A DNA stretch of 64,000 bases from an uncultured Candidatus Saccharibacteria bacterium (GTDB taxonomy: Bacteria > Patescibacteriota > Minisyncoccia > Phycocordibacterales > UBA9973), in contig CAYIBP010000003.1 of the NCBI GenBank assembly GCA_964361705.1, forward strand, positions 5,606 through 69,605, read 5' to 3'. Shown here in pieces: positions 303 through 62,436 of this stretch. The notes beneath the pieces are model-generated. The model was not told the DNA's origin and made no database searches. It saw only the letters and a program-made list of their open reading frames with translations. The position numbers were made by a program, and so were the translations under genes. The stretch's first letter is position 1; every line of letters begins with the position of its first letter.

Positions 303-2060
303 TTAGCGACCGCTTTTAATATCTTCTATTTGTTTGTTAATTTCATTTATTTCTTTTAAAGTTTGCTCTGCGAGCGATACTTCTTTTTTTTCTTCCAGTT
401 CTTTAAGTTCTCGTATTTTCTTGGAAAGTTTCTCTTTTAAATCTTCTTCTTTCAGATTTCTTAGGAGCTCCATTGTATCTTTCTTCAAATCAGCTCCATC
501 TCCATAAAAAACCTCCGCTTCAAATATCAAATCTTCTTTATTGCTTTCCGCTTTATTAAAAATGGTTGATTCATCTTTGCCTAAAATGACTGTCAATTCT
601 CTCAACAGACTCTCAACATCAAAGCTTTGATTGTTCAAACTTTTTTGCCAAAAAACAATACCAAGCAATCTGTTCAAAATATAGTCTTTCCTGAAAAATG
701 CACTTCTACTGCTTTTGGCTTGTTCGATCTCATCTTTCTCTGTTTTTGATTCTTTTTCAATTTTTGACAGGTCTTCTCTTAAATCCTCCCCCCTTATCTG
801 CGATGCGTCGCTTATCTTGCGCAAAAAATCCGCTTTCTCTATTCTGCTTTCAAGCGCATTCACATAAGGCAACACTCTTTCTTTTATAGCTCTGCCCGCC
901 TTGCGAGTATCATTTTTATATTCGTTTAAAACTTTCTCTAAGAAAAATTCTATTATGTGTTTTGACTCTCTAATAGCAGAGCGCCAAGCATCAACTCCAT
1001 TCTTTGAGATCAAATCTGCCGGATCCACGCCTTCTTGCATGGAAGCAACTTTTACATCCATACCCAAAGACAAGGCGATCTTGCCAGCGCGAGCAGAAGC
1101 ATTCACCCCGGCTCGGTCAGCGTCAAATGCAAGTACGATGTTCTCTGAAAGTCGGCGAAGCAATCCTAAATTTGAAACTACATTTTCTTTTGAAACAAGA
1201 GCATCAGAAAGCGCTGTACCAGAAGTCGCTACTGTATTTTTAAACCCAGCCTGATGCGACAATACCAAATCCATCTGACCTTCAACCAAAATAGAAAAAT
1301 TATTCCTGCGAATTGAGTCTTTTGCTTTGTGAAGACCGTACAACACGGCAGATTTATTGAAAATGGGGGTATCCGGACTGTTGAGGTATTTAGCGGACTT
1401 ACCATCATCTTCAAAAATCCTGCCAGAAAAAGCAATAATGCGTCCGCTAGAGTCAGAGATAGGAAACATAATTCTTCCTCTAAATCTATCGTAGAATCCT
1501 TTTTCAGATTTCTTTGCAAGTCCCGCCTTTTCTATTTCCACATCCGTAAAACCCTTTTTCTGCAGATGAACGAGCAACAGCCTCCAATCGTTTTTTATAA
1601 AACCTATTCTAAAATCCTTGATTGTTTTTTCTTCTAGACCTCTTTTTTGCAAATATTCTAGAATTTCTTTGTTGTTTTCCAAACCCTGCTCAAAGAACAA
1701 ACACGCTTCTTCCATAGACTTGTACAACCTTTCTTTTTCGCTCTCTTTTTCTTTAGAGAATTCACCCAATACGACACCCGCTCTTTCTGCAAGCAACTTC
1801 AAAGCACCTTTAAAATCAAGGCCTTCGAATTCCTGCACAAAAGAAAAGATATCTCCTTTTGCGGCACAACCGAAACAATAATAACTACCTCGATCTGAAG
1901 ATACAAAAAAGGATGGTGTCTTTTCGTTGTGAAAAGGGCATCTGGCTTTGAAATTTATGCCTGATTTTTCAAGCTTTACATATGAAGATATAACCTCCTC
2001 AATAGAAAGTCTCTCTTTGATCTGCGAGACAGGAGAATTTGCTCCATTGTAAATTTTCAT
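303..2060 (-). CDS. dnaG: DNA primase
   Basis: 585 aa with the CHC2 zinc finger CPFHNEKTPSF...CFGC, a TOPRIM region (EGQMDLV, DADRAG), and rpoD downstream. Confidence 0.9.
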   Translation of the reverse strand: MKIYNGANSPVSQIKERLSIEEVISSYVKLEKSGINFKARCPFHNEKTPSFFVSSDRGSYYCFGCAAKGDIFSFVQEFEGLDFKGALKLLAERAGVVLGEFSKEKESEKERLYKSMEEACLFFEQGLENNKEILEYLQKRGLEEKTIKDFRIGFIKNDWRLLLVHLQKKGFTDVEIEKAGLAKKSEKGFYDRFRGRIMFPISDSSGRIIAFSGRIFEDDGKSAKYLNSPDTPIFNKSAVLYGLHKAKDSIRRNNFSILVEGQMDLVLSHQAGFKNTVATSGTALSDALVSKENVVSNLGLLRRLSENIVLAFDADRAGVNASARAGKIALSLGMDVKVASMQEGVDPADLISKNGVDAWRSAIRESKHIIEFFLEKVLNEYKNDTRKAGRAIKERVLPYVNALESRIEKADFLRKISDASQIRGEDLREDLSKIEKESKTEKDEIEQAKSSRSAFFRKDYILNRLLGIVFWQKSLNNQSFDVESLLRELTVILGKDESTIFNKAESNKEDLIFEAEVFYGDGADLKKDTMELLRNLKEEDLKEKLSKKIRELKELEEKKEVSLAEQTLKEINEINKQIEDIKSGR

Positions 2061-2108
2061 AAATTATTTTGAGTTACAAAGGCGAACTATTTCGTAATCC
2101 AAAGTATA

Positions 2109-5100
2109 TTATTCTTCTGTATTCCCTGTTTTAAAACCAGTACCCACCGGTATAAGTCGTCCGATGATAACGTTTTCCTTTAGTCCTCTCAAAGAATCTA
2201 TACCACCTTTTACAGCGTTCTCTATCAAAACACGGTTTGTGTTTTGGAAAGAAGCGGCAGAAAGCCAACTCTTGGTGCGAAGAGAAACTTCAGTTATACC
2301 AAGCACTATAATTTCTGCTTTTGCTTCTTTCAAACCTTCTTTTTCTACTCTTTGATTTTCTTCTATAAGAGCGGTATTTTCAATTATGTCTCCTATTGAG
2401 AAATTTGTTTCTCCTGCTTCTTTTACCTTTCTACGAGAAAACATTTGGCGCACGATGATCTCTGTGTGTTTTCTGGAAATAGAAGCACTTTGCAATTCGT
2501 ACACTTTGTTTATTTCACGAATAATGTATTCTTCTACCATTTCTTTTGTGCCAAGACTAAACATTTCAGCAATATCTGCGGAGCCATCAGTTAGGAGTTC
2601 ACCCTTCTTGACCTTCTGTCCAACCTTTACGATAGGAGTTCTACGAAAAGCGACGGTGTATTCTATTTCATTGGATTTGTTGCCCTTTACAGGATCGTCT
2701 GCCAAGATTTTGATAACTTTTTCTTTAGCGCTTAATTGCCCGTCCACCAAAACCTTTTCTTTAATTTCAAAGACTTCCCCGTCAACTTCAGAAATCACGG
2801 CAGAATTTTTAGGAGTTCTTCTTTCGAATATTTCCTCAACACGAGGCAAACCCGTGGTGATATCGGCACCCGCCACGCCTCCAGCGTGGAATGTACGCAA
2901 AGTAAGCTGTGTACCCGGCTCACCTATGGCTTGCGCGGCGATGATTCCCACAGCTTCACCAAGATTAACCATGTGGTTTCTTCCAAGATCAAGACCATAA
3001 CACATCTGACAAATTCCGTGCGTGGTTCTACAGGTCAAAGGAGATCTGACGAATACTTCCTCAAAACCAGCACCTTCGATATTACGAGCTTCTTCTTTGG
3101 TTACTAAGAAGCCCTTCTTGTAGATAGTCTTGCCGTCTGTGTCTTTCAAATCGCCGGCAAGTACTCTTCCGGAAATATTTTTAGCTAGTGGTATTTCAAT
3201 ACCGGAAATGTTTTCTTTTGTAACTACCTTGCCTTCTTTTGTACCGCAATCTTCTTCTGTGATCACAACATCTTGCGACACATCCACAAGTCTGCGAGTC
3301 AAATAACCCGCCTTTGCAGTGTTAAGAGCTGTGTCTGAAGCTCCTTTACGAGCACCGTGAGTGGTAACGAAATATTCAATAGGAGAAAGTCCTTCTTGAT
3401 AACATGGAATGATCGGAAACTCTAAAGTCTTACCCTGGTTATTCTGAATCAGACCTTTCATACCCGTCATCTGAATAAGTGAAGTCATCGTGCCTCTCGC
3501 GCCTGAAGTAAAAAGATCATAAGTAGAGCCATTCTTGTCTAGAGTCTTTGGCAAAACCTTTTCCAATTCTTTCTTGGATTGAGTCCAGATCTCTATAATC
3601 TTCTGATATCTTTCTTCTTCGGAAAGAAGACCGTCGTTCCATTCGTTGATTATTTTTGCTTCTAACTTTCTGCCATTTTCTATAATGCTTTCTTTCTCTA
3701 TTGGAACTTTCACATTATCAAGACCCCAAGTCGTGCCTGAAAATGTCGCGTACTTGAAACCGAAATTCTTTATCTTGTCCAATATTGGAGGAGTATTATC
3801 CACACCATAATGTACGATAAGCTCGTCAAGCAAAGCGGACAACCTCTTTTGTGTCATTTCATCACTGATATAAGGAAAGTCACTGGGCAATACACTATTG
3901 AATAACAATTTACCTACAGAGGTTTCAAACATTTGTTCATCAAACTTTTTATATTTAACATTTTTAGTAGCCAAAACTTTTATCTTTGCTCGAAAAGCCA
4001 CAATCCCATATTCGTATGCTGTAATAGCTGCATTTGGACTAGAAAAATATTTTCCTTCACCTTTTTCTCCTTCCACATTCTTGGTCATCCAATAAGAACC
4101 AAGCACCACATCTTTACTAGGATGCACTATAGGATCTCCGTTCTGTGGCTTCAAGAGATTTTTATTTGAAGCCATTAAATTTTTAGCTTCTGCTTGCGCT
4201 TCTTCTAAAAGAGGCACATATACAGCCATCTGGTCTCCGTCGAAGTCTGCATTGAACGCCTGACAAACAAGTGGATGCACTTGGATCGCATTGCCTTCTA
4301 TGAGGATAGGATTGAATGCTTGAATACCTAGTCTGTGCAAAGTAGGCGCGCGGTTCAACAAGACATACTTGCCTTTTATTACTTCTTCAAGCATAGCCCA
4401 GACTTCTGGAGTGCGTTCTTCGATAAGCTTGTTTGCGCCACGGATATTGAAAGCAAGCTCGGCCTGCAAAATTTTTGAAATTACAAAAGGTCTGAAAAGC
4501 TCCAAAGCCATATGTTTCGGAAGTCCGCATTGATTCAAAGCAAGTTCGGGACCGACAACAATCACAGAACGACCAGAATAATCAACACGTTTACCGAGAA
4601 GGTTCTGACGGAAAAGACCTTGTTTTGATTTCAAGTTGTCTGAAAGAGATTTCAACGGCCTTTTTTGAGACTGACTCATCGCCGCACTTTCGTTTTGTTT
4701 TGCTATTGAATTGTCTATCAAAGCATCTACCGCCTCCTGAATAATTCTTTTTTCATTTCTCAAAATAACATCCGGTGCATTTATTTCTTTGAGTTTTTTC
4801 AAACGATTATTTCTGTTTATTACTCTTCTGTAAAGATCGTTCAAATCTGAAGTGGCGTGTCGTCCTCCATCAAGAGCGACCATCGGGCGAAGCACTGGAG
4901 GAATGACAGGGATCGCAGTCAAGAACATCCATTCTGGTCTGATATCCGCATAGATCATGGCTCGTATTAGAGATAATCTTTTTTGAATTTTTTCTTTTTC
5001 TATGGAACTTGCCTTCTCGGATATCTTTTCTATATGGGATTTTAGTTTCTCCAAGTCCAAATTCTTGAATATGGAATAGATAGCTTCTGCGCCGATACTA

Positions 5101-5771: not shown

Positions 5772-8700
5772 TTATTTTTCTTCCGAGAACTTCTTCAAAT
5801 TCACATCAAGCGCAAGTCCTCGCAAGTAATTAAGCAAAACATTAAACGAAGCTGGCGAATTTGGCGCCTTGATCGCTTCGTTCTTGATAATAGAATCAAA
5901 AGTAGCGGATCGACCCATAATGTCATCTGATTTTATAGTTAGCATTTCACGCAACGTATAAGCAGCGCCGTATCCTTCGAGTGCCCAGACTTCCATTTCT
6001 CCAAATCTCTGTCCTCCGCCTTGAGCTTTTCCTCCAAGTGGTTGCTGAGTGATGAGCGAATACGGACCGATGGAACGCATGTGAATTTTGTCTTCTACCA
6101 TGTGGTGTAATTTGAGCATGTACATATATCCCACTGCCACATCTTGCGCAAAAGGTTCACCTGTACGTCCGTCGAAGAGTTTGAGTTTACCATTCTCTGG
6201 AAGTCCAGCTTTCTTAAGTTCTTCTTTGATCTCTTCGTGTTTCGCGCCTAGAAATGGAGGTACTATCGCTTGATAACCTAAAGCTTCTGCCGCCATTCCA
6301 AGGTGTATTTCCAAAATCTGTCCCAAGTTCATACGAGAAGGCACACCAAGTGGTGAAAGTATTATATCAACAGGAGTACCGTCAGCATCGTAAGGCATAT
6401 CTTCTTCTGGAAGGATTTTTGAAATAACACCCTTGTTGCCGTGTCTTCCAGAAAGTTTGTCTCCGACGGAAATATTTCTAATCTGCGCAACTTCAACCAC
6501 TATCTTTTTTATTATTCCCGCTTCAAGAGTATGTCCTAGATCACGAGAAAATATTTTGACTCCTATTATGCGTCCGCGCTTGCCGTGCTCCATGCGAAGT
6601 GATGTGTCCTTCACATCACGAGCTTTCTCGGCAAAGATTGATCTTAGAAGTCTTTCTTCTGGAGTGAGCTCTGTTTCGCCTTTGGGAGTGATTTTCCCAA
6701 TCAAAATATCATTTTCTCTTACCTCCGCGCCTATGCGCACTATTCCATCTTCATCAAGATCTTTCAATTTCAACTCTCCGACATTTGGTATGTCGCGAGT
6801 TGTAACTTCCGGACCAAGTTTTGTATCGCGTACAGTACAAACGAATTCTTCTACATAAATACTTGTGAACTTGCTCTTTTTTACAAGTCTTTCCGATAAA
6901 ATAATCGCGTCTTCATAGTTAAAACCAAACCAAGACAGAAACGCAACCCTTACATTTTGTCCTATTGCTATCTGCCCATCCACGGTGCTTGTGTTATCAG
7001 CTAAAACATCGCCTTTCTTTATTTTCTGTCCTACAGATACGATAGGTCTTTGATGCAAGGCGGAAAAATTGTTATTCCTCAAAAAGTTTACAAAATTATA
7101 TGTTTTTTCTTTATCTCCTTTTACTACTGCTTTTTTAGCATCTAGATAAGTCACCACACCGTCTTCTGTGGCGATGACCATTCTGCCTCCATCTCTTGAA
7201 GCGAGCGATTCGATACCTGTCGCGACCAAGGGTGCTTCAGGCAAAATACATGGTACAGCTTGTTTCTGCATGTTTGATCCCATCAGTGCGCGATTCGCAT
7301 CATTGTGTTCCAAGAAAGGAATCATGGAAGTACCTATCGAAAAGGCCTGATTCGCGGCTACATCTATGAAATCCACTTGATCTCGAGCGATAGTGCCTGC
7401 TTCTGTTTTAACTCTAGCCGCCACTCGATCTTCAGTAATTTTGCCATTTTCATCATAAATAACTCCCGCGTGAGCAATGTTGTATTTTTCTTCTTCTAGA
7501 GCGTTTAAGTATTGGACTTCTCCTGTAATTTTGCCGTTTTTGACTTTGACATAAGGGGTTTCGATGATTCCAAAATCATTTATTTTTGCGTATGTGGCAA
7601 GGTGAAGAATAAGACCGATGTTAGGACCTTCAGGAGTGTGTATAGGACATACTCTTCCATAGTGCGAAGGATGCACGTCGCGTACTTCAAGACCGGCTCG
7701 CTCTCGTGTCAAACCTCCGGGTCCCAAGGTAGAAAGTGTTCGCAGATGTTCCATTTCGCCGAGAACATTCTCCTGCATCATGAATTGCGAAAGCTGGTTG
7801 GTAGTGAAAAATTCTTTAATGCGAGCCTGAAGAGGACGCTGGTTTATGATGTGTATCGGCAAAGCAGTATCTACATCTATGATAGACATTCTGTCTTGAA
7901 TATTCCTTTTGATCTGCATCATACCAGTGCGAACCTTTTGCTGGAGCATTTCACCTACAAATCTGACTCGCCTTTGACCCAAATGGTCTATATCGTCAGC
8001 CTTTGCCCCTGGAGTGTTATTAAGAGAAATTACATGTTTGAGGATAACCGCCACATCATCTTTTGAGATAGTACGGCGAGCAAGTTCAGCTTCTTCTAAA
8101 GGCTTACTGAATCTTTGATTGAATCTATATCTACCTACTGGAGAAATATCATATCTTTCAGAAGTAAACAACGAATCTATAAACTCCTTTGCGTTTTCAG
8201 CAGTAGCCAAATCTCCGTCTCTTAGACGCTTATAAACTTCTATGTACGCGTCGTTCAAAGTCTTCGCTGTGTCTTTGGCAATACAAGCTTCTATCGCCTT
8301 TTTATAATCAATACCGTCAGTGGATTTCTCAAAGGCTTTCAACAGATTATCATCTGTATGATAACCCATGACTCTAAGAAGCGAAGTTGCAGAGAATTTT
8401 CTTTTTTTATCAATTCTTATATAAATGTTTCCATCACTGTCGGATTCTATTTCTATCCAAACTCCGCGAGCTGGAATAATCTTTGCTCCAAAATATTTCT
8501 TGCCTTTATTTTCAGATTCCGTAAAAAAAACTCCGAAAGAACGAGCAAGCTGTGGAACGATAATTCTCTCTACGCCATTTATAATGAAAGTGCCGTGAGG
8601 AGTCATAAGCGGAAGCTCTGACATGAATATTTCTTGTTCCTTTACTGTGCCCAATATTTTATTCTTAAGCTTTACACGAGCCTTCAACAAACCCTGATAT

Positions 8701-9863: not shown

Positions 9864-9909
9864 AAAAAGAAAAACCGTGACATCAATATATCACGGTTTC
9901 TTCTTTTTA

Positions 9910-10245
9910 TTAAATACCTTTCAAGTCCTCCATCGCCTGATCAACAGTCTTCATGCTCATATCGTTTCCCATACTTGGGTTTTGAGGTCTCATGCCACCC
10001 TCTGGTTCGTTGATCTTTAGATTCACACGAGCGTTGTTCTTCATACCTATAATGCGAAGGAGTGTGCGAATAGCCTTTGCTGTATTGCCCATCCTTCCGA
10101 TGATCTTACCCATATCGGCTGGGTTGACTGTGAGACTGATGAGTACCCCCATCTCGTCTACTGTGCGATCCAACTTTACATCATTTGGATTATCTACCAA
10201 TGCCTTTACTATATATTCTAAAAATTCTTTATCAGCGTCATGCAT
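9910..10245 (-). CDS. KH-domain RNA-binding protein (KhpA/YlqC-like) with a C-terminal extension
   Basis: 111 aa with a KH GXXG loop (IIGRMGNTAKAIRTL); canonical position between rpsP and trmD. Confidence 0.75.
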   Translation of the reverse strand: MHDADKEFLEYIVKALVDNPNDVKLDRTVDEMGVLISLTVNPADMGKIIGRMGNTAKAIRTLLRIIGMKNNARVNLKINEPEGGMRPQNPSMGNDMSMKTVDQAMEDLKGI

Positions 10246-10357
10246 AGTGTTTCAGATTAATTAATTTTAAATTTTTAATGTTCGATCTACCAACGAAAAC
10301 AGTTTTGATACGACCCCAAAACATCACTTCCATTAGTATGAGTATAATTATATATTA

Positions 10358-10666
10358 TTACTTTTGAGCTTTCAACTCTTTTCTCTTTTTAGTTGGTTTC
10401 TTTTTAGATAACACATTTCTTTTCTTGCCTTCTATCACCTTTTGGCTAACCATAAAGTTATGCATAGTGTCAGAGAGTTGAGCGCCCTTTGAAACCCAAT
10501 ATTGTATTCTCTCGGCCTTAAAATTTGTCTCTCCTGCTTTCGGATTATAAGTACCGACTATCTCCAAGAATTTACCACTCTTGGTACTGTTTTTAGAATC
10601 AGTCAAAACAGCTCGAAAAGCTGGGTCGTTCTTCCTGCCTATCCTTTGTAATCTTATTTTTAACAT
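10358..10666 (-). CDS. rpsP: 30S ribosomal protein S16
   Basis: MLKIRLQRIGRKNDPAFR N-terminus; 102 aa with a Lys-rich tail. Confidence 0.9.
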   Translation of the reverse strand: MLKIRLQRIGRKNDPAFRAVLTDSKNSTKSGKFLEIVGTYNPKAGETNFKAERIQYWVSKGAQLSDTMHNFMVSQKVIEGKKRNVLSKKKPTKKRKELKAQK

Positions 10667-10697
10667 AGGAACAGTCTAACATAATTTATTAAAAAAG

Positions 10698-10732
10698 CAA
10701 TAAAATAAAAAGACGCGGAATGCGTCTTTTTA
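10698..10732. terminator. Bidirectional intrinsic terminator between the 118-aa gene and rpsP
   Basis: AAAGACGC-ggaat-GCGTCTTT hairpin flanked by A-run and T-run (ttattttatttatt). Confidence 0.5.
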
Positions 10733-10760
10733 TTTTATTTATTCTCTAGCTATTACAGAA

Positions 10761-11117
10761 CTAGATATTGTCTATAAACTCGTTTGCTAGACTTAGCACA
10801 AGAGCAGCTTGCGCGTCAGTTAGATACTTGTAGCCTTTCTTTTTTCCTAATTTCTTCTCCATATCATTAGCTACTCTTTCCATCTTCCTTTCTGCTTTAT
10901 CTAGTTTATTTTTCTTTCCTGCTAAAGCAATCATATTGTCTATTCTGTTTAAGAGCTTCTTCTCATCAGGGGTACTGCCTGGAAATGCTTCAACGGTTGC
11001 TCTCATAGAAAGCAAATGCGCCATAGGATCAAATGGACCACCATAGGCTGCAGCAGAACCAAAACCCAAAACCATCATCATCGTAACCAATAAACTCGCA
11101 CCTAAGAACTTTTTCAT
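10761..11117 (-). CDS. Small secreted hypothetical protein
   Basis: 118 aa; signal peptide MKKFLGASLLVTMMMVLGFGSAAAYG; Lys-rich; no recognisable domain. Confidence 0.5.
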   Translation of the reverse strand: MKKFLGASLLVTMMMVLGFGSAAAYGGPFDPMAHLLSMRATVEAFPGSTPDEKKLLNRIDNMIALAGKKNKLDKAERKMERVANDMEKKLGKKKGYKYLTDAQAALVLSLANEFIDNI

Positions 11118-11262
11118 AAAATATAATTAGTTAAATTAATAATAAAAACATTTCGGAATATTATTTATATAGCCGATAGCATCATTATACACAATCATAT
11201 ATAATATGAAAACAACTTTAGATGTGGATAACCCACAACAGAGCTACTTATGGAATTAATAT

Positions 11263-29662: not shown

Positions 29663-29723
29663 AGCAAAGATTAATGAACAAAAGCGGACAAAAAACCAAA
29701 ACTCGTGCGCAGAACAAGAAGTA

Positions 29724-29951
29724 TTATTTTTCTTCTGCTTTCTTCGCTTTTTCTTTCTTTTGCTTCTTTTCTATCTTTTTGATTAAATCCAATACTTTCT
29801 TGCCGTTGTAATATCCACAAGACAAGCAGACTGTGTGGCCTTTCTTTGGAAGTTTACAGTTTTCACACTTCACAAAAACGGTCTTCTCCAGTGCGTGGTG
29901 AGATCGTCTGTTTTTCGTATGCGATTTTGTATGCCTCATTCGTACTACCAT
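29724..29951 (-). CDS. rpmF: 50S ribosomal protein L32
   Basis: MVVRMRHTKSHTKNRRSHHAL N-terminus; CxxC...CxxC zinc ribbon; Lys-rich tail. Confidence 0.85.
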   Translation of the reverse strand: MVVRMRHTKSHTKNRRSHHALEKTVFVKCENCKLPKKGHTVCLSCGYYNGKKVLDLIKKIEKKQKKEKAKKAEEK

Positions 29952-29958
29952 AATACCG

Positions 29959-29964
29959 ATTATA
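29959..29964 (-). promoter_or_regulatory. -10 box TATAAT 7 nt upstream of the rpmF ATG
   Basis: Minus strand reads TAGTATAAT-CGGTATT-ATG. Confidence 0.45.
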
Positions 29965-30007
29965 CTAGCATATAAAAGATAAAAAGCAAAATTTTAACTC
30001 TGCCTTG

Positions 30008-30035
30008 TTGACAATAAATATATCCGCGCTATCAT
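30008..30035 (+). promoter_or_regulatory. Sigma-70-type promoter of the thrS leader (TTGACA-16-TATCAT)
   Basis: TTGACA at 30008-30013, a 16-nt spacer, TATCAT at 30030-30035. Confidence 0.5.
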
Positions 30036-30041
30036 ACTCTT

Positions 30042-30224
30042 ATATAGAGATTGTCACGGCTACCAACCGTAATCCGATTAAAACGGACTCTTAAGAGAGC
30101 TAATCTATGAAAGAGCGCTCGGGAAAATTCTCGAGAAACTAGGTGGAACCACGAGGACTTTAACTTCCCCGCCCTAGTAAGGATGTAGAACTTTTGCATC
30201 TTTACTAGGGCGGGGATTTTTTGT
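30042..30224 (+). ncRNA. T-box riboswitch leader (Thr-specific candidate) ending in an intrinsic terminator
   Basis: The T-box-like sequence AACTAGGTGGAACCACGAG (30137-30156) matches AGGGUGGNACCGCG at 11 of 13 positions. The UGGA bulge could pair with the tRNA NCCA end. ACC Thr codons followed by a purine lie in the upstream stem region (GGCTACCAACCG). A 14-bp GC-rich terminator CCCCGCCCTAGTAA...TTACTAGGGCGGGG plus a T-run sits at 30167-30224. About 230 nt separate the promoter from the thrS ATG. Confidence 0.55.
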
Positions 30225-30270
30225 TTTATATTATTAAAATTAATCAATTAACCTATTTGAAATAGTTTTT

Positions 30271-34337: not shown

Positions 34338-34372
34338 TAAAAAAAATAGTCTGCGAATGAAAATTCGCAGAC
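34338..34372 (-). terminator. Intrinsic terminator downstream of the tRNA
   Basis: Minus strand reads GTCTGCGAAT-TTTC-ATTCGCAGAC followed by a T8 run. Confidence 0.7.
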
Positions 34373-34377
34373 TTTCG

Positions 34378-34453: not shown

Positions 34454-35014
34454 ATGAACATCGCATTTGATACGACAAAGTCATATGAAATGCGATATCC
34501 ACGATAGATAAAGACAAAAAAATTGGGGGTGGATTGAAAAAATTTTCGCGCCAACCCCCTCATTTTCTCTATCCTTATTTGCCTTTTCGTTTAACCAACT
34601 CCCTTCTAAAGAGGAATTGGGGGGAAGGCATTCAGATAGAGAGCAGAAAACACAAAACCTTTTATTTATGTCAATTGCTCTCTATCCGAAAATCTTTGCC
34701 AAAGAACAAAATCTAGTAAAAACTAAACTAGCCCTATCCTTGCGGAGAGGGCTAGTGTTTGAGTTGTATATTTTCCCTTATTTCCTTCTTAGTTATACAG
34801 CGCAAGCATCAGACCTCTCCTTCCCGTGTTGGGTGAGGATAGTAATAAAGAGGACGACGTATTTGCTTGCAAACTGTAAAGTTTTCACAGCTACAAATAT
34901 ACCAAAATCGAAAAAAACCTGCAAGCGCAAGTGTGGATAACTCCCAAATTTTAAGGAGCAAAGCGACTATAAAACTTGAGGATCCCGCCAAAGGCGGGAT
35001 AAAAATAGAGATTT

Positions 35015-35054
35015 GGGCAAAATTTGGCCCTCAGCATGAAGCTTGCTGAGGGCC
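35015..35054 (-). terminator. Candidate pheT terminator: 11-bp GC-rich hairpin
   Basis: GGCCCTCAGCA-tgaagct-TGCTGAGGGCC, followed on the minus strand by CAAATTTTG, about 95 nt after the pheT stop. Confidence 0.45.
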
Positions 35055-35146
35055 ACGATAACTCCGGCTAGGCTATCCCACATAGGGACCTCCGAGATTA
35101 AGTTATTTTCATCTTCCAAGATTATAACATTTACAGACAAATTAGT

Positions 35147-36952
35147 CTACCTCACAGACCAGCTGGACTGTGAATTCAACTTTTCGGTGATTTTGTTTAT
35201 TATGGTGTTTATTTCTTCGTCAGATAAAGTGCGTTCGTAAGATTGGAAAATGACCTTGAAAGCATAGGATACTTTGCCGTCTTTCTTAAATTCATCAAAA
35301 AGTTTCGGGCCCAACACTACCATATCTCCTATATTTTCTTTTATAATCTTTTCCACATCTGCACTCGAAATAATCTCAGGCACCCACACTGCTATATCAC
35401 GCGCAATGAATGGGTAGAGTGACCACATTTTAAATTTAGAATTCTCACCTATATTCTTTTCTGAAGAGACTTGAAAAAAAGTACCAGGCGAAGTTTCTGG
35501 CATACTTTTACAAAACTCTTCCAAGCTCATTTCTTTCACTTCTTTTTTATCTGCAATACAAACATGTATCTCCTCACCTTCTTTTTTAAATACTGTTCCT
35601 ATTTCAAATATTTTTATTTCGTCCATTTCTAGAAGCGGAGAATTAAGCTGATTTAGTTTTAGGCTTTCTTTCACGCCATCAGAAAGATTGACCCTCAAGA
35701 ATTTCTTATCCGAAGCAGAAGCTAAAACTTCTACATCCCCTTTATTTCTAAAAACATAAGTCATCACCTCGCTGTAACCATCATTTAAAAGTTTTTCTCT
35801 AGACCAAGATATTTTTGAGAATATATCATTCGCTTGTGGCTTGAAATCAATCTTGGGTAATTTCGGCACAATCTTGTCATAACCCATAATTCGAGCTACT
35901 TCTTCAGCTATATCTTCCTCCATTGAAAAATCGAGACGCATAGGGGGAACATTAATCTCAATTATCCCATCTTCCTTTTCCTCAAAATGTATATTGTACC
36001 TGTCTAAAATGCTTTTCATTTCTTCGCTAGTCACATCCACACCCAACACCTTAGAAACTTTATGCAAAGAAAAAGAAAGTTTACGATCTTCTTGTTTTAC
36101 GGGATACTCATCCACAATATCTTCAAAAACTGCTTCTGGACATATCTCCATTATGAGACCCGAGAGTTCTTTCATACCATAAGATACGAGCTCGGGTGAT
36201 AAATCATTTTCAAATCTTTTCTTTGAATCAGTCTGAATATTTGCAGATTGAGCGGTCTTACGCACAGATACTGGATCAAAATTTGCTACTTCGATGATTA
36301 TATTTTTTGTATTACTGTCCACTTCTGCGGATTTACCACCTTTTACACCAGCTATGGCTAAAATATTAGTATTGTCCGCTATTACCATGTCTTTGGCAGA
36401 AAGTTTGACTTCTTTATTATCCAAAGCGGTCATCTGTTCGCCATCTCTCGCCTGTCTGACTATGATTCCTCCATCTACTTTATCTAAATCAAAAGCGTGA
36501 GTAGGCTGACCACTGTCGTACATCACAGTATTTGTAGCATCTACTATGTTGTTGATACTTCTCTGTCCTATTGATTCTAAATGTTCTACAACCCAAGCAG
36601 GCGAAGATCCTATTTTTATATTTTTTATTATTCTTCCAGCGTACCTGCGACATTTATCCGTATCTATCTTTATTTTAAGATTAGTTGGATTTGAATTTGG
36701 AATTTTATATAAAGGTTCTGGATTCTTGAATTCTATTTCCAAAAGAGAAGCGAGCTCGCGTGCCACACCCTGATGAGAAAGCAGATCGTGAGCTCTGTTC
36801 GGTAGAATTTTTATATCCAAAACTACATCTCCACCTTCGAGTTTTTCCATGCTTTCAACCTCAGCTAGATGGTATGTAACAATATCAGCGAGTTTGTCTA
36901 CTTCTGGAATCTGTGGAACGTACCATTTTAACCAATTGTAAGATATCTTCAT
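35147..36952 (-). CDS. pheT: Phenylalanyl-tRNA synthetase beta subunit (short form)
   Basis: 601 aa with B3/B4 and B5 regions and a C-terminal anticodon-binding-like domain; immediately downstream of pheS. Confidence 0.85.
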   Translation of the reverse strand: MKISYNWLKWYVPQIPEVDKLADIVTYHLAEVESMEKLEGGDVVLDIKILPNRAHDLLSHQGVARELASLLEIEFKNPEPLYKIPNSNPTNLKIKIDTDKCRRYAGRIIKNIKIGSSPAWVVEHLESIGQRSINNIVDATNTVMYDSGQPTHAFDLDKVDGGIIVRQARDGEQMTALDNKEVKLSAKDMVIADNTNILAIAGVKGGKSAEVDSNTKNIIIEVANFDPVSVRKTAQSANIQTDSKKRFENDLSPELVSYGMKELSGLIMEICPEAVFEDIVDEYPVKQEDRKLSFSLHKVSKVLGVDVTSEEMKSILDRYNIHFEEKEDGIIEINVPPMRLDFSMEEDIAEEVARIMGYDKIVPKLPKIDFKPQANDIFSKISWSREKLLNDGYSEVMTYVFRNKGDVEVLASASDKKFLRVNLSDGVKESLKLNQLNSPLLEMDEIKIFEIGTVFKKEGEEIHVCIADKKEVKEMSLEEFCKSMPETSPGTFFQVSSEKNIGENSKFKMWSLYPFIARDIAVWVPEIISSADVEKIIKENIGDMVVLGPKLFDEFKKDGKVSYAFKVIFQSYERTLSDEEINTIINKITEKLNSQSSWSVR

Positions 36953-46274: not shown

Positions 46275-48805
<2,531 letters not shown>

Positions 48806-48809
48806 TTTA

Positions 48810-55496: not shown

Positions 55497-55976
55497 CTAT
55501 GAAGCTGGACAAGCAGCTGATGAGCCAGCAAGAACACTTACTCTACCTGCAGAAGTCCCAAGACTATCCACGCACCAATATAAATTACCATTATCTGCGG
55601 CTTTTAGAGGAACTGATATAGCCCAAGCTGATGATGTTGCATGACAGTTTGAAGTTGTTGCTGTTTGTGCCGTTGCGTACGTAAGAACTATACCACCACT
55701 AACACCACTAGCCGAATGCGCTGCTGTAAGAGCTTTTGAAATCGTTCCATCCTGTACACCATTACAAACAGTATCATAACTATTTGGATTTGCTCCATCA
55801 TAGACTATCTCTGCTTGAGCGCGAATATTTGCAAGATTTGCCTTTATCGCGGCATTATTACCTTTACTTCTCGCTGTATTCAAAGACCCCAAGACTACAG
55901 ACGCCAAGATACCGATGATGGCGACGACGACCAAGAGTTCAATTAATGTAAAACCTTTTTTAAGATTATTCTTCAT
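55497..55976 (-). CDS. Type IV major pilin paralog
   Basis: MKNNLKKGFTLIELLVVVAIIGILASVVLGSLN has an N-terminus nearly identical to the neighbouring pilin; 159 aa. Confidence 0.8.
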   Translation of the reverse strand: MKNNLKKGFTLIELLVVVAIIGILASVVLGSLNTARSKGNNAAIKANLANIRAQAEIVYDGANPNSYDTVCNGVQDGTISKALTAAHSASGVSGGIVLTYATAQTATTSNCHATSSAWAISVPLKAADNGNLYWCVDSLGTSAGRVSVLAGSSAACPAS

Positions 55977-56145
55977 AATTTATTTTATAAAAGTTAATAA
56001 ATACTTTAACGAAATTTCGACTCGTTTTAATATATGTATTATAACTTCTATTATGAAGAGGTTGCAACAAGGTTATCCACACCAAAATTTTGGCGTTTAA
56101 AAAAATATGAGAAAAATTATGTTAAGAAAAAGTTTTTATGCGATA

Positions 56146-61427: not shown

Positions 61428-61433
61428 AGGTAA

Positions 61434-61829
61434 TTATGGTCTAGCCCCAGTCCTTCCGCCACTTGTCGATCCGGGAGTGGTATTCGTGGTAGAAATAGGA
61501 GCAAAAGGATTTGGTCTTCCTTCATCACCGGTAGGAACCAAAAGAATACTTGAATCATTCAAACCGGCAAAAACTTTGTCTGAAAAAATAGAATCATCTA
61601 ATTTGATGTTTTTTACGCTAAGCAATACCGAAAGGAAATCCTGCGTTACTCTATTCATCTCACTAGTTGTGGGTGAAACTGGAGGGATGTTAGGATCATA
61701 AGAAAATTCCCCTGACGTAGATGACAAATTCGCCTCTTCCCCTTTACTCCCTATAAAAAAAATATAAGCTAAGACCACCAAAGCTCCTATCACGACAAAG
61801 AGTATTATGTTTTTGACAGTTGTGTTCAT
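61434..61829 (-). CDS. Small bitopic membrane protein (PilP-like position)
   Basis: 131 aa; single N-terminal TM; Ser/Thr/Pro-rich. Confidence 0.45.
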   Translation of the reverse strand: MNTTVKNIILFVVIGALVVLAYIFFIGSKGEEANLSSTSGEFSYDPNIPPVSPTTSEMNRVTQDFLSVLLSVKNIKLDDSIFSDKVFAGLNDSSILLVPTGDEGRPNPFAPISTTNTTPGSTSGGRTGARP

Positions 61830-61830
61830 T

Positions 61831-62421
61831 TTAGTTTTTTAGCCAATAAGTCTTAATTTTAAAATCATAAGTGTAAACTTCGGACAAAGAGGATCCTGCA
61901 CCCAAGTTTGTATTTGAAGAAAATTGTATTGAAGATATATCTACGATACGTAGGTTACTTTCTAGGTCTTTTATAAAATTTATAAAATTACTATACGAGC
62001 CAGAGGTTGAAAACTCAAGATTCCAAGTATCATAATCTTTAACCATGATTTCTTCCTCTGCTGGCACAGATTCTTCGCCCTCTGTCAGAACAACATTCTC
62101 TCCCGCATCGTATTTGACATCTTTGAGCGCCATGCCATATGGAGAAGCTATTTTTTCTATCTCAAGTATGAGGCGTATATTGTCTACATTATCAGGCAAA
62201 AGCTTCTGCAGTTTAGATAAATTGTCTGGATTAAAAGAATTATATTTTTGAGTGAGCTTGTCGCGTTCAGCTTCAAATGCTTTCGCGTTATCAAGCGCCT
62301 TATTGTAATCTGAAACCTGACTTCTCTTCAAAGAAACATCTTGGTAAAGAGGACTTGTAAATAGGAAAAAGGCTGTGAGCGCTATTCCTATTAATATACC
62401 TGGTAAAATAAATTTAAACAT
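61831..62421 (-). CDS. pilO: PilO-like pilus assembly protein
   Basis: 196 aa; N-terminal TM then coiled coil; PilN-PilO pairing position. Confidence 0.55.
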   Translation of the reverse strand: MFKFILPGILIGIALTAFFLFTSPLYQDVSLKRSQVSDYNKALDNAKAFEAERDKLTQKYNSFNPDNLSKLQKLLPDNVDNIRLILEIEKIASPYGMALKDVKYDAGENVVLTEGEESVPAEEEIMVKDYDTWNLEFSTSGSYSNFINFIKDLESNLRIVDISSIQFSSNTNLGAGSSLSEVYTYDFKIKTYWLKN

Positions 62422-62436
62422 AAATATCTGCTAGAA

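Follow-up and report, generated by a model that had tools for sequence, protein, structure and literature searches.

A candidate leader-peptide attenuator in the structured spacer between pheT and a tRNA-like gene of an uncultured Patescibacteria genome

The DNA analysed here, which we call the window, is a stretch of 64,000 nucleotides (nt) from an uncultured Candidatus Saccharibacteria bacterium (GenBank assembly GCA_964361705.1, contig CAYIBP010000003.1). Our subject is the spacer at its positions 34460-35146 (the tract), which separates pheT from an atypical tRNA-like gene. On the minus strand the order is pheS, pheT, the tract, the tRNA-like gene, terminator T3 and gyrB, and all features of the tract lie on that strand, in the same orientation as pheST and gyrB. 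We read the tract as a composite regulatory spacer on the minus strand, with a core that is a leader-peptide attenuator, and give this reading a probability of roughly 0.7. The core unit (34945-34719, minus strand) combines a promoter of its own, as predicted, with a 31-codon open reading frame (ORF), competing pairings and a hairpin followed by a U-tract; the conservation of the ORF, the covariation of the pairing, the terminator-like hairpins and the association with particular genes carry the argument. The tract is framed by the following features:

37699-36956, minus strand: pheS
35147-36952, minus strand: pheT, with the Pfam domains B3_4, B5 and FDX-ACB
34378-34444/34453, minus strand: atypical tRNA-like gene, Rfam tRNA score 34.4 bits (gathering score 29)
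34348..34373, minus strand: terminator T3, 3' of the tRNA-like gene, an 11-bp stem followed by U8, from a terminator scan
34272-32218, minus strand: gyrB

A first-pass annotation of this DNA had singled out the tract as an unusually long, GC-elevated and hairpin-dense gap between pheT and the tRNA-like gene, without a plausible ORF. Its position is borne out by the Pfam domains of pheT and by the Rfam tRNA score, the gap is among the three largest of the window without an ORF of at least 200 amino acids (aa), and the five hairpins and pairings that the annotation listed are all where it placed them. The hairpin density is real: folded on the minus strand, 34460-35146 has a minimum free energy (MFE) of −239.4 kcal/mol, compared to −172.4 ± 8.2 kcal/mol for dinucleotide shuffles (z = −8.1; 0 of 20 as good). 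The elevated GC is partly sustained, since the tract (0.399) exceeds the window (0.369), non-ORF DNA (0.351) and pheT (0.364), but the rise is marginal and gyrB reaches 0.421. The lack of a plausible ORF, on the other hand, is contradicted by the 31-codon ORF at 34888-34793 (minus strand), whose frame is open in all 46 homologues, and additionally by a 38-codon ORF preceded by a Shine–Dalgarno (SD) sequence at 35083-34967.

The bacterium of the window is a Nomurabacteria/Paceibacteria-like member of the candidate phyla radiation (CPR). Its pheT protein is identical to one from a metagenome-assembled genome labelled "Patescibacteria group bacterium" that is found on several Hainich groundwater contigs (wells H51/H52). 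Every contig with 100% identity has the same tract, and at least five independent assemblies of this groundwater organism agree fully on the tract sequence; the tract is therefore no assembly artefact. The next-nearest pheT, that of the L087 organism, is just 70% identical, and no relative between it and the identical contigs was available for a finer comparison. Across 51 related genomes, pheT is directly followed by gyrB in most, inserts at this junction are present in few lineages, and these inserts are not all related. L087 is the sole syntenic relative, with the same pheT–gyrB context: it aligns with window positions 34509-34942 at about 71%, and the alignment stops short of the first 200 nt of the tract, its last 60 nt and the tRNA-like gene. 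Unrelated GC-rich, structured-looking inserts occupy the same junction in L002 (~6590-7120) and L012 (~7800-8260).

The 5' part of the core unit consists of these features:

34932..34940, minus strand: TTATCCACA box, an exact match to the DnaA-box consensus, 7 nt upstream of the −35 element
34896..34924, minus strand: putative leader promoter recognized from its sequence, −35 TTGCAG (34924-34919), 17-nt spacer, −10 TATATT (34901-34896)
34793..34888, minus strand: leader ORF of 31 codons, from GTG at 34888 to TAA at 34795-34793, encoding MKTLQFASKYVVLFITILTQHGKERSDACAV

BLAST and nhmmer searches against the pheT loci found relatives only for about 34728-34914, in L006 and L008; L007 shares the core unit as judged by eye, so that four pheT–gyrB loci carry it in all. 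These four copies share the promoter, a 5' GUGAA..., an invariant GAUAUUUGCGCUGUAAAA (block 1), an invariant UACAACUCAAACAC (block 2), and the hairpin with its U-tract. We then scanned metagenome contigs for the exact pattern TACAACTCAAACACYAGCC, which returned 67 loci, about 50 of them clear homologues and the remainder chance matches; the same pattern had zero matches in IMG/VR. A covariance model built on the antiterminator helix described below (R1) found further diverged and tandem copies, and overall at least 55 homologous copies of the core are present in Nomurabacteria/Paceibacteria-like contigs. Diverged family members were found solely by this model, at L011 (215-352 and 395-1934) and L023 (2155-2310), the latter with a leader (…NSSPVPSS…) similar to that of L011 and preceding a gene without known function. 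Cassettes of a leader and a small ORF are often in tandem, about 500 nt apart (L056, L104, L117, L103, L065, L109, L118, L081, L057 and L007), and in L007, L057, L109 and L081 two consecutive Leu-type attenuators precede one gene. In L008 (~7990-8150), L100 (~1960-2190, minus strand) and L078, the leader is followed by another structured module that is itself conserved; this module reads AAUACGCCAA..AUUGGAGGGUU..GCGGAAACC..UUACUGGCGUA..GGUUUCCACAC, followed by a hairpin GAGCCCUCC/GGAGGGCUU, has possible terminator/antiterminator alternatives of its own, and has no Rfam match.

A telling property of the family is the conservation of the leader frame, which is open from the promoter-proximal start to the segment X' in 46/46 homologues, compared to 1/46 and 5/46 for the +1 and +2 frames, and which is maintained despite a length range of 18-34 codons. 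An automated scan placed an extended −10 element (TGnTAnnnT) 5-8 nt, mostly 6 nt, before a GTG or ATG start codon in 41 of the 46; among the other five, three show a variant −10 by eye at the same spacing, and the start is less clear in L052 and L056_2. In the window the ORF begins 7 nt past the −10 box, i.e., at the predicted transcription start, and we infer that the core transcript is leaderless, starting at the GUG of the ORF. The predicted place of the ORF, at the very start of the transcript and ahead of a gene, is that of the leader ORF of an attenuator. The consensus peptide is MNKNIQAN-S-YFFFSF-x3-LRRLIFAL, and the L087 orthologue is MKTLQHTSKYVVLFITLIQDEGERSRACAV. The leaders stop at UAA in GCGCUGUAA in 30 copies, at UGA in GGCUGA in six and at an upstream UAG in two, with the UAA of the window clade two nt further on. 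The conserved nucleotide block has UAG, UGA and UAA in its three frames, and every leader terminates inside it. Thus, with a C-terminus that varies with the frame over invariant nucleotides, selection at this end of the ORF acts on the RNA and on the end of translation, not on the peptide. The codon runs at the centre of the leaders are Phe-type in 26 cases, Leu-type in 7, Val/Ile-type in 6, Pro-type in 1-2 and mixed in 12, the window included.

The 3' part of the core can form mutually exclusive structures from four segments that act like regions 1-4 of a trp-type attenuator, together with two blocks, of which block 1 can also pair with block 2:

about 34857-34826, minus strand: X, region 1, overlapping the hydrophobic codons
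34822-34811, minus strand: X', region 2
34756-34745, minus strand: X2, region 3
34740-34729, minus strand: X2', region 4, followed by the U-tract
34796..34878, minus strand: "off" fold, helix P1 with the enclosed 1:2 helix, MFE −27.0 kcal/mol
34741..34823, minus strand: "on" fold (antiterminator), X' with block 1 (34822-34793) paired to block 2 with X2 (34774-34745), −21.3 kcal/mol
34719..34756, minus strand: attenuator terminator T1, CUAGCCCUCUCC-GCAA-GGAUAGGGCUAG then UUUAGUUUUU, −20.4 kcal/mol

In P1, codons 4-9 (34878-34864) pair with block 1 (34809-34796), and in the 1:2 helix the run of hydrophobic codons (about 34857-34826) pairs with X' (34822-34811), such that block 1 and X' are common to the "off" and "on" folds. 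Two of the structures listed by the first-pass annotation turn out to be functional helices of this element: its long-range GCAAGCA/TGCTTGC pairing is P1, and its CTAGCCCT/AGGGCTAG hairpin is the terminator. Given the window energies (−27.0 kcal/mol for P1 with the 1:2 helix, −21.3 for the antiterminator and −20.4 for the terminator), termination is therefore the predicted default state. The terminator, too, is a family property: the 3:4 hairpins of the homologues average −16 kcal/mol, with at least five U in the next 9 nt in 35/46, which places an intrinsic terminator between the leader ORF and the downstream gene.

Among the helices of the core, covariation is clearest in the antiterminator. 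Over 46 sequences, 92.8% of the cells of this 22-bp helix (X':X2 with block 1:block 2) are paired, with compensatory changes at 6 pairs in 29 cells (e.g., U-A/C-G/G-C and G-C/A-U); none of 500 shuffles equalled this pairing, and slid controls were 32-53% paired. The window clade contributes compensatory changes of its own, with UGUAUA/UAUACA for UGUAAA/UUUACA and GGAGAG/CUCUCC for UUAGAG/CUCUAA. Alignment-free tests, which compared duplex energies of cognate and non-cognate partners with 10,000 permutations, gave −14.3 versus −12.6 kcal/mol for the 2:3 pairing (p < 1e-4), −10.2 versus −9.4 for P1 (p < 1e-4), −8.9 versus −8.3 for the 3:4 pairing (p = 1e-4), −6.3 versus −5.9 for block 1 with block 2 (p = 6e-4), and −6.9 versus −6.5 for the 1:2 pairing (p = 0.019); three control pairings showed no significant difference between cognate and non-cognate partners. 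The 1:2, 2:3 and 3:4 helices are mutually exclusive, with 2:3 covarying and 3:4, P1 and 1:2 specific to cognate partners.

In the window, R1 matches 34823-34741 (minus strand) at 64.1 bits (E = 2.6e-14), the sole match on that strand with E < 0.1, and a reverse-strand match at the same place is a palindromic echo of the antiterminator helix. We considered whether the window holds the scaffold twice and rejected this: R1 gives one significant locus, and hairpin H2 (see below) scores just 16 bits, as a generic hairpin would. Other long window stretches without an ORF of at least 200 aa are 9864-11221, 61428-62436, 29663-30270, 55538-56145 and 48291-48809, and R1 has weak chance-level matches only in them.

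Most copies are followed by an SD-preceded ORF on the same strand, 60-260 nt after the hairpin, and where the downstream gene can be recognized, at five loci, it lies in the pathway of the amino acid of the leader's codon run. The L011 leader (MLIERKINSSPVPPSKGWVVGFCA), with three Pro codons, is directly upstream of proB (AA_kinase, 1e-38) and proC (P5CR). In L057, two tandem Leu-run leaders (...SALLLSL... and ...NLNLLLLTQ...) stand before an HMGL/LeuA-type gene, and Phe-run leaders precede a chorismate mutase (CM_2, 1e-16) in L058 and a class IV (IlvE-like) aminotransferase (2e-48) in L061 and L085. The remaining cargo is mostly small proteins that match no Pfam family. Among the tiny proteins encoded downstream of other copies, two families recur: Cys-rich proteins of 60-130 aa (…LPCGC.R…) in six loci (L068, L072, L079, L102, L115 and L117), and proteins of 55-63 aa with SDHS(D/E)V and (R/K)DWxGQxF motifs in three (L067, L107 and L111). 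The scanned members of both families had no Pfam match.

A conserved ORF of this kind might also encode a small functional hydrophobic peptide, such as a type I toxin or a membrane peptide, with hairpins that merely stabilize or terminate its mRNA. The conserved N-terminus (MNKNIQAN), the hydrophobic centre and the multi-copy, often tandem nature of the family speak for such a peptide. However, its N-terminal codons are the 5' strand of P1, its C-terminus takes a completely different form in each frame (RRLIFAL*, LEG* or shorter) on invariant nucleotides, its hydrophobic stretch of 6-9 residues is too short to span a membrane, and the residues of its central run (Phe, Leu, Val/Ile or Pro) change along with the biosynthetic genes downstream. 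The reverse-strand R1 matches, being palindromic echoes, do not point to a separate antisense gene. The family also lacks what marks a type I toxin–antitoxin system, with a C-terminus unconserved as protein and a run of only 6-9 residues, although an antisense promoter was not looked for in detail. We regard the peptide explanation as very unlikely.

The core is best read as a ribosome-mediated leader-peptide attenuator of the trp/phe/leu/ilv type that acts on a leaderless transcript, and its anatomy is that of a cis-acting leader/attenuator rather than of a housekeeping noncoding RNA (ncRNA). A sigma-70-type promoter would drive an mRNA that begins at the GUG of the 31-codon leader ORF. With the ribosome absent or already past region 1, codons 4-9 would pair with block 1 (P1) and the V-V-L-F-I-T-I-L run with X', leaving X2 free to form the GC-rich hairpin with its U-tract (34756-34719), at which transcription would end. 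When the matching charged tRNAs are scarce, a ribosome stalled at the hydrophobic codons would block P1 and the 1:2 helix; X' and block 1 would then pair with block 2 and X2 in the 22-bp antiterminator, the terminator would be excluded, and the polymerase would read through. In the window copy, read-through would enter a 190-nt conserved noncoding segment (H2 to T2) and may reach the tRNA-like gene.

Several points weigh against this reading. First, transcription start, translation of the ORF, termination, stalling and the regulatory outcome are all predicted from sequence, and in model bacteria leaderless initiation at GUG works poorly. Second, the window copy has no downstream protein gene, read-through would be halted at its second, strong terminator (T2) without reaching the tRNA-like gene, and its leader run (VVLFITIL) is mixed, not homopolymeric. 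Third, most copies precede tiny ORFs of no known function, not biosynthetic genes, and CPR bacteria largely lack amino-acid biosynthesis. Fourth, the pyrimidine-rich Phe and Leu codons could partly result from pairing with the purine-rich X' rather than from sensing. Fifth, block 2 and 5 nt of X2 were part of the search pattern, and their invariance is hence by construction; the shuffle statistics for the antiterminator ignore phylogeny; and the "off" fold is only 73% paired on a MAFFT alignment, with weak covariation, a weakness that we put down in part to poor alignment of the variable region.

The remainder of the tract, on both sides of the core, contains the following:

35121..35149, minus strand: promoter-like site, TAGACT-17-TGTTATAAT (TG-n-TATAAT), consensus scan, 10/12 plus extended −10
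34967..35083, minus strand: candidate 38-codon ORF MWDSLAGVIVALSKLHAEGQILPKSLFLSRLWRDPQVL, ATG at 35083, GGAGG at 35093-35089, 5 nt upstream
34631..34690, minus strand: hairpin H2, arms GGAUAGAGAGCA / UGCUCUCUAUCU, −31.0 kcal/mol, within the conserved noncoding extension
34516..34559, minus strand: terminator-like hairpin T2, GGGGGUUGG...CCACCCCC followed by U7, hairpin at 34559-34525, −15.6 kcal/mol
34456..34500, minus strand: hairpin H3, 13+7 bp, −22.0 kcal/mol, 2 nt before the tRNA-like gene, not conserved in L087

Downstream of the core, the segment 34712-34516 is conserved in L087 too and is apparently noncoding, since the sole frame common to the two is broken by a 5-nt indel; a coding reading of the H2 region, based on a short GTG frame common to both at its start, was rejected on account of this indel. 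Compared to L087, two pairs of H2 carry compensatory changes (G-C to A-U and A-U to U-A), and T2 is nearly identical there. The H2–T2 segment may be a regulated RNA or a degenerate second attenuator; as a weak lead, CUGAAUGC is common to it and to the second attenuators of L007 and L057.

These features bring up the possibility that the attenuator-like unit mainly yields a trans-acting small RNA (sRNA), either the terminated transcript of ~170 nt or an RNA of ~370 nt ending at T2, with the ORF secondary or the unit in a dual role like that of rnTrpL/peTrpL in Sinorhizobium. In both the window and L087, what follows T1 is not an SD-preceded gene but noncoding sequence that is conserved, holds a covarying hairpin and ends in a strong terminator, and block 2 (ACAACUCAAACAC) is invariant, A/C-rich and single-stranded in the "off" fold, like the seed of an sRNA. 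There are documented cases of sRNAs derived from attenuators (PMC6614838). Against this, most homologues have an SD-preceded ORF within 60-260 nt on the same strand, block 2 owes its invariance in part to the search pattern and is the partner of block 1 in the covarying antiterminator, and a pure sRNA would not need a frame conserved in 46/46 copies. A trans-acting sRNA with an A/C-rich seed was our initial reading of the conserved unit and was demoted once the conserved ORF and the downstream SD-preceded genes had been found; we now consider it unlikely.

Upstream of the core, the head of the tract (35146-34946) forms a module of its own, with poor conservation. The promoter-like site lies just past the pheT stop and is not conserved in L087. 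The SD and ATG of the 38-codon ORF align with an SD and ATG in L087, where gene finders call a 45-aa ORF, but BLASTP detects no similarity between the window 38-aa and L087 45-aa peptides. The ORF contains two perfect GC-rich hairpins (35054-35026 and 35000-34982), the two nearest to pheT, and both the promoter-like site and the SD with its ATG are located between these and pheT. The head may represent a small gene, the terminator region of pheT or a combination of the two.

The first-pass annotation had suggested that the tract as a whole is a structured ncRNA, and part of this holds: it harbours a conserved, lineage-specific structured RNA element without an Rfam match, though not a single stable RNA of 690 nt of the 6S, RNase P or transfer-messenger RNA (tmRNA) kind. 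One large ncRNA, divergent or of a new class (6S-like or OLE/ROOL-like), would account for the very strong folding signal (z = −8.1), for the absence of a long ORF and for the position between housekeeping genes that L087 shares. It fits poorly with a conservation that in L087 is limited to 34509-34942, without the first 200 nt and last 60 nt, with an internal promoter and three internal terminator-like hairpins with U-tracts, with relatives in most of which pheT abuts gyrB without an insert, and with a conserved core that elsewhere occurs alone, in many contexts and directly upstream of genes. The cmscan search against all of Rfam that had been called for matched only tRNA in the tract, even at E ≤ 10. 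In Rfam 15 the window at gathering score, the tract at E ≤ 10 and the relatives gave only tRNA and chance microRNA-like hairpins. In particular, cmscan detected no 6S, RNase P RNA, tmRNA, signal recognition particle RNA, OLE, ROOL, GOLLD, HEARO or raiA (window at gathering score; tract at E ≤ 10), and ARAGORN found no tmRNA. A tmRNA-like idea, raised by a GGCUGAU motif, a tag-like "...AL*" ending and the nearby tRNA-like domain, was dropped: there is no T-arm beside the acceptor-like helix, ARAGORN and Rfam were negative, and the frame of the "tag" varies among copies. We judge a single large ncRNA to be highly improbable.

Much the same holds for the view that the tract is a functionless remnant of a decayed gene, or the scar of a mobile element beside a tRNA gene, the former of which the first-pass annotation had also entertained. 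Most relatives indeed lack an insert between pheT and gyrB, different lineages have unrelated inserts at the same spot, and the tRNA-like gene next to the tract is aberrant, with a short repeat inside it. Yet a decayed gene finds no support for the conserved core, a member of a family of ~55 copies: this family is large and constrained, and the window copy is intact, with its ORF and helices in place and a covariance score of 64 bits, while H2 has undergone compensatory changes relative to L087. There are no IMG/VR matches, and no integrase or transposase genes or tract-flanking repeats were seen. A remnant is thus scarcely credible. A phage origin was likewise set aside, both the block-2 pattern and the 3' half of the tRNA-like gene having zero matches in IMG/VR.

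The tRNA-like gene has a perfect 7-bp acceptor stem (GACGGUG/CACCGUC), a connector of 7 nt (GAGACGA) from the acceptor to the D-arm in place of the normal 2 nt, which the perfect acceptor stem requires, an anticodon loop CUGAGAA (anticodon GAG, for the Leu codons CUC/CUU), a short variable loop and A73, and no encoded CCA; the internal repeat is GACGGUGGA / GACGA. ARAGORN does not detect it at default settings, and as an alternative tRNA model we rejected the poor, mismatched class II models that the same program yields at lowered thresholds. L087 has a 54-aa basic ORF in its place, and no copies were found in the other loci or in IMG/VR. The window leader ORF upstream of it has two CUC codons. 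It is conceivable, though doubtful, that the family constitutes a "plug-in" attenuator regulon of Paceibacteria/Nomurabacteria, in which one leaderless scaffold with swapped codon runs (Phe, Leu, Val/Ile and Pro) couples dozens of tiny genes to tRNA charging, with the window copy gating a noncoding RNA and the GAG tRNA-like gene. If true, this would be an amino-acid-starvation sensing network in organisms unable to make amino acids, and the tRNA-like RNA would be made in response to stalling at its own codons (CUC, with GAG reading CUC/CUU). To our knowledge, no attenuation control of a tRNA gene has been described.

The DnaA-type box upstream of the leader promoter is also a recurrent element, with TT(A/T)TCCACA in the corresponding position at about 19 of the 46 homologous loci. 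Perfect TTATCCACA or TTTTCCACA boxes occur in the window at 11223 (minus), 34932 (minus), 56073 (plus) and 57319 (minus), and the same type of box is found just after pheT in L006, L007, L008, L025 and L031; these boxes are intergenic and lie 10-45 nt upstream of promoter-like −35/−10 elements. A replication origin (oriC) near gyrB was rejected, as the tract has one perfect box, the boxes are unclustered and the GC skew is monotonic across the window. The box looks like a promoter-associated transcription-factor site rather than part of a replication origin.

Like E. coli trpL, pheL/pheM, leuL, ilvL/ivbL, thrL and hisL, the family has a short leader ORF rich in codons for the amino acid presumably sensed, overlapping 1:2, 2:3 and 3:4 pairings that end in an intrinsic terminator before the gene, and a proposed default termination relieved by ribosome stalling; likewise, in several members the codon run fits the gene behind it (proBC, leuA-type, chorismate mutase or ilvE-type). 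The differences are as clear: there is no homology in sequence or structure and no match to an Rfam leader family at E ≤ 10; the E. coli leaders are SD-driven, whereas the family ORF is leaderless at the predicted transcription start; and proteobacterial leaders are unrelated from operon to operon, whereas this family reuses one RNA scaffold with different codon runs. Further, the scaffold contains stop codons in all three frames, its cargo consists mostly of tiny ORFs of no known function, often in tandem cassettes, and downstream of the window copy there is just noncoding RNA and a tRNA-like gene. The Rfam leu/phe leader (of Lactococcus), Phe_leader and Leu_leader are alike in responding to Phe or Leu codon runs through terminator/antiterminator switching, but the family is not a member of any of them by cmscan of the window and seven typical homologues. 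These families and the Trp, His and Thr leaders had no match in the tract (E ≤ 10) or in those seven homologues (E ≤ 0.5). Riboswitches with terminator platforms share the conserved 5' leader, the competing terminator and antiterminator and the varied downstream genes; the "sensor" of this family, however, is an ORF constant only in its frame, codon runs and stop position, and no conserved junction resembling a ligand pocket was identified.

Similar leaderless leader peptides occur in Corynebacterium and Mycobacterium. In Deinococcus deserti, leaderless leader peptides have been predicted to attenuate aminoacyl-tRNA synthetase and biosynthesis genes (PMC4007540). As in the present family, transcription there starts at the initiation codon (AUG or GUG) of a short ORF in which one amino acid is abundant, upstream of synthetase or biosynthesis genes, with attenuation deduced from sequence. 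The family differs in its phylum (CPR/Patescibacteria), in its longer ORF (18-34 codons), in a scaffold conserved over dozens of genomes and amino-acid specificities, and in being known from genome sequence, not from RNA sequencing. With no match in Rfam 15, and no paper on this leader family or on attenuation in CPR bacteria in the literature searched, the attenuator family appears to be previously undescribed.

CPR/Patescibacteria are host-dependent bacteria of extremely small size, most of them not in culture; their regulation is believed to be very limited and their amino-acid biosynthesis nearly absent. If our reading is correct, the family would show directly that they keep track of tRNA charging and switch genes in response. 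The tiny cargo ORFs, including the Cys-rich and SDHSDV..DWxGQ families, would then be candidates for a response to amino-acid limitation, and hence for host dependence. The family also suggests leaderless translation in this lineage, and would offer an evolutionary example of one RNA scaffold re-targeted by the swapping of codon runs. More generally, long and seemingly "empty" spacers in these genomes can conceal micro-ORFs and cis-regulators that gene callers miss.

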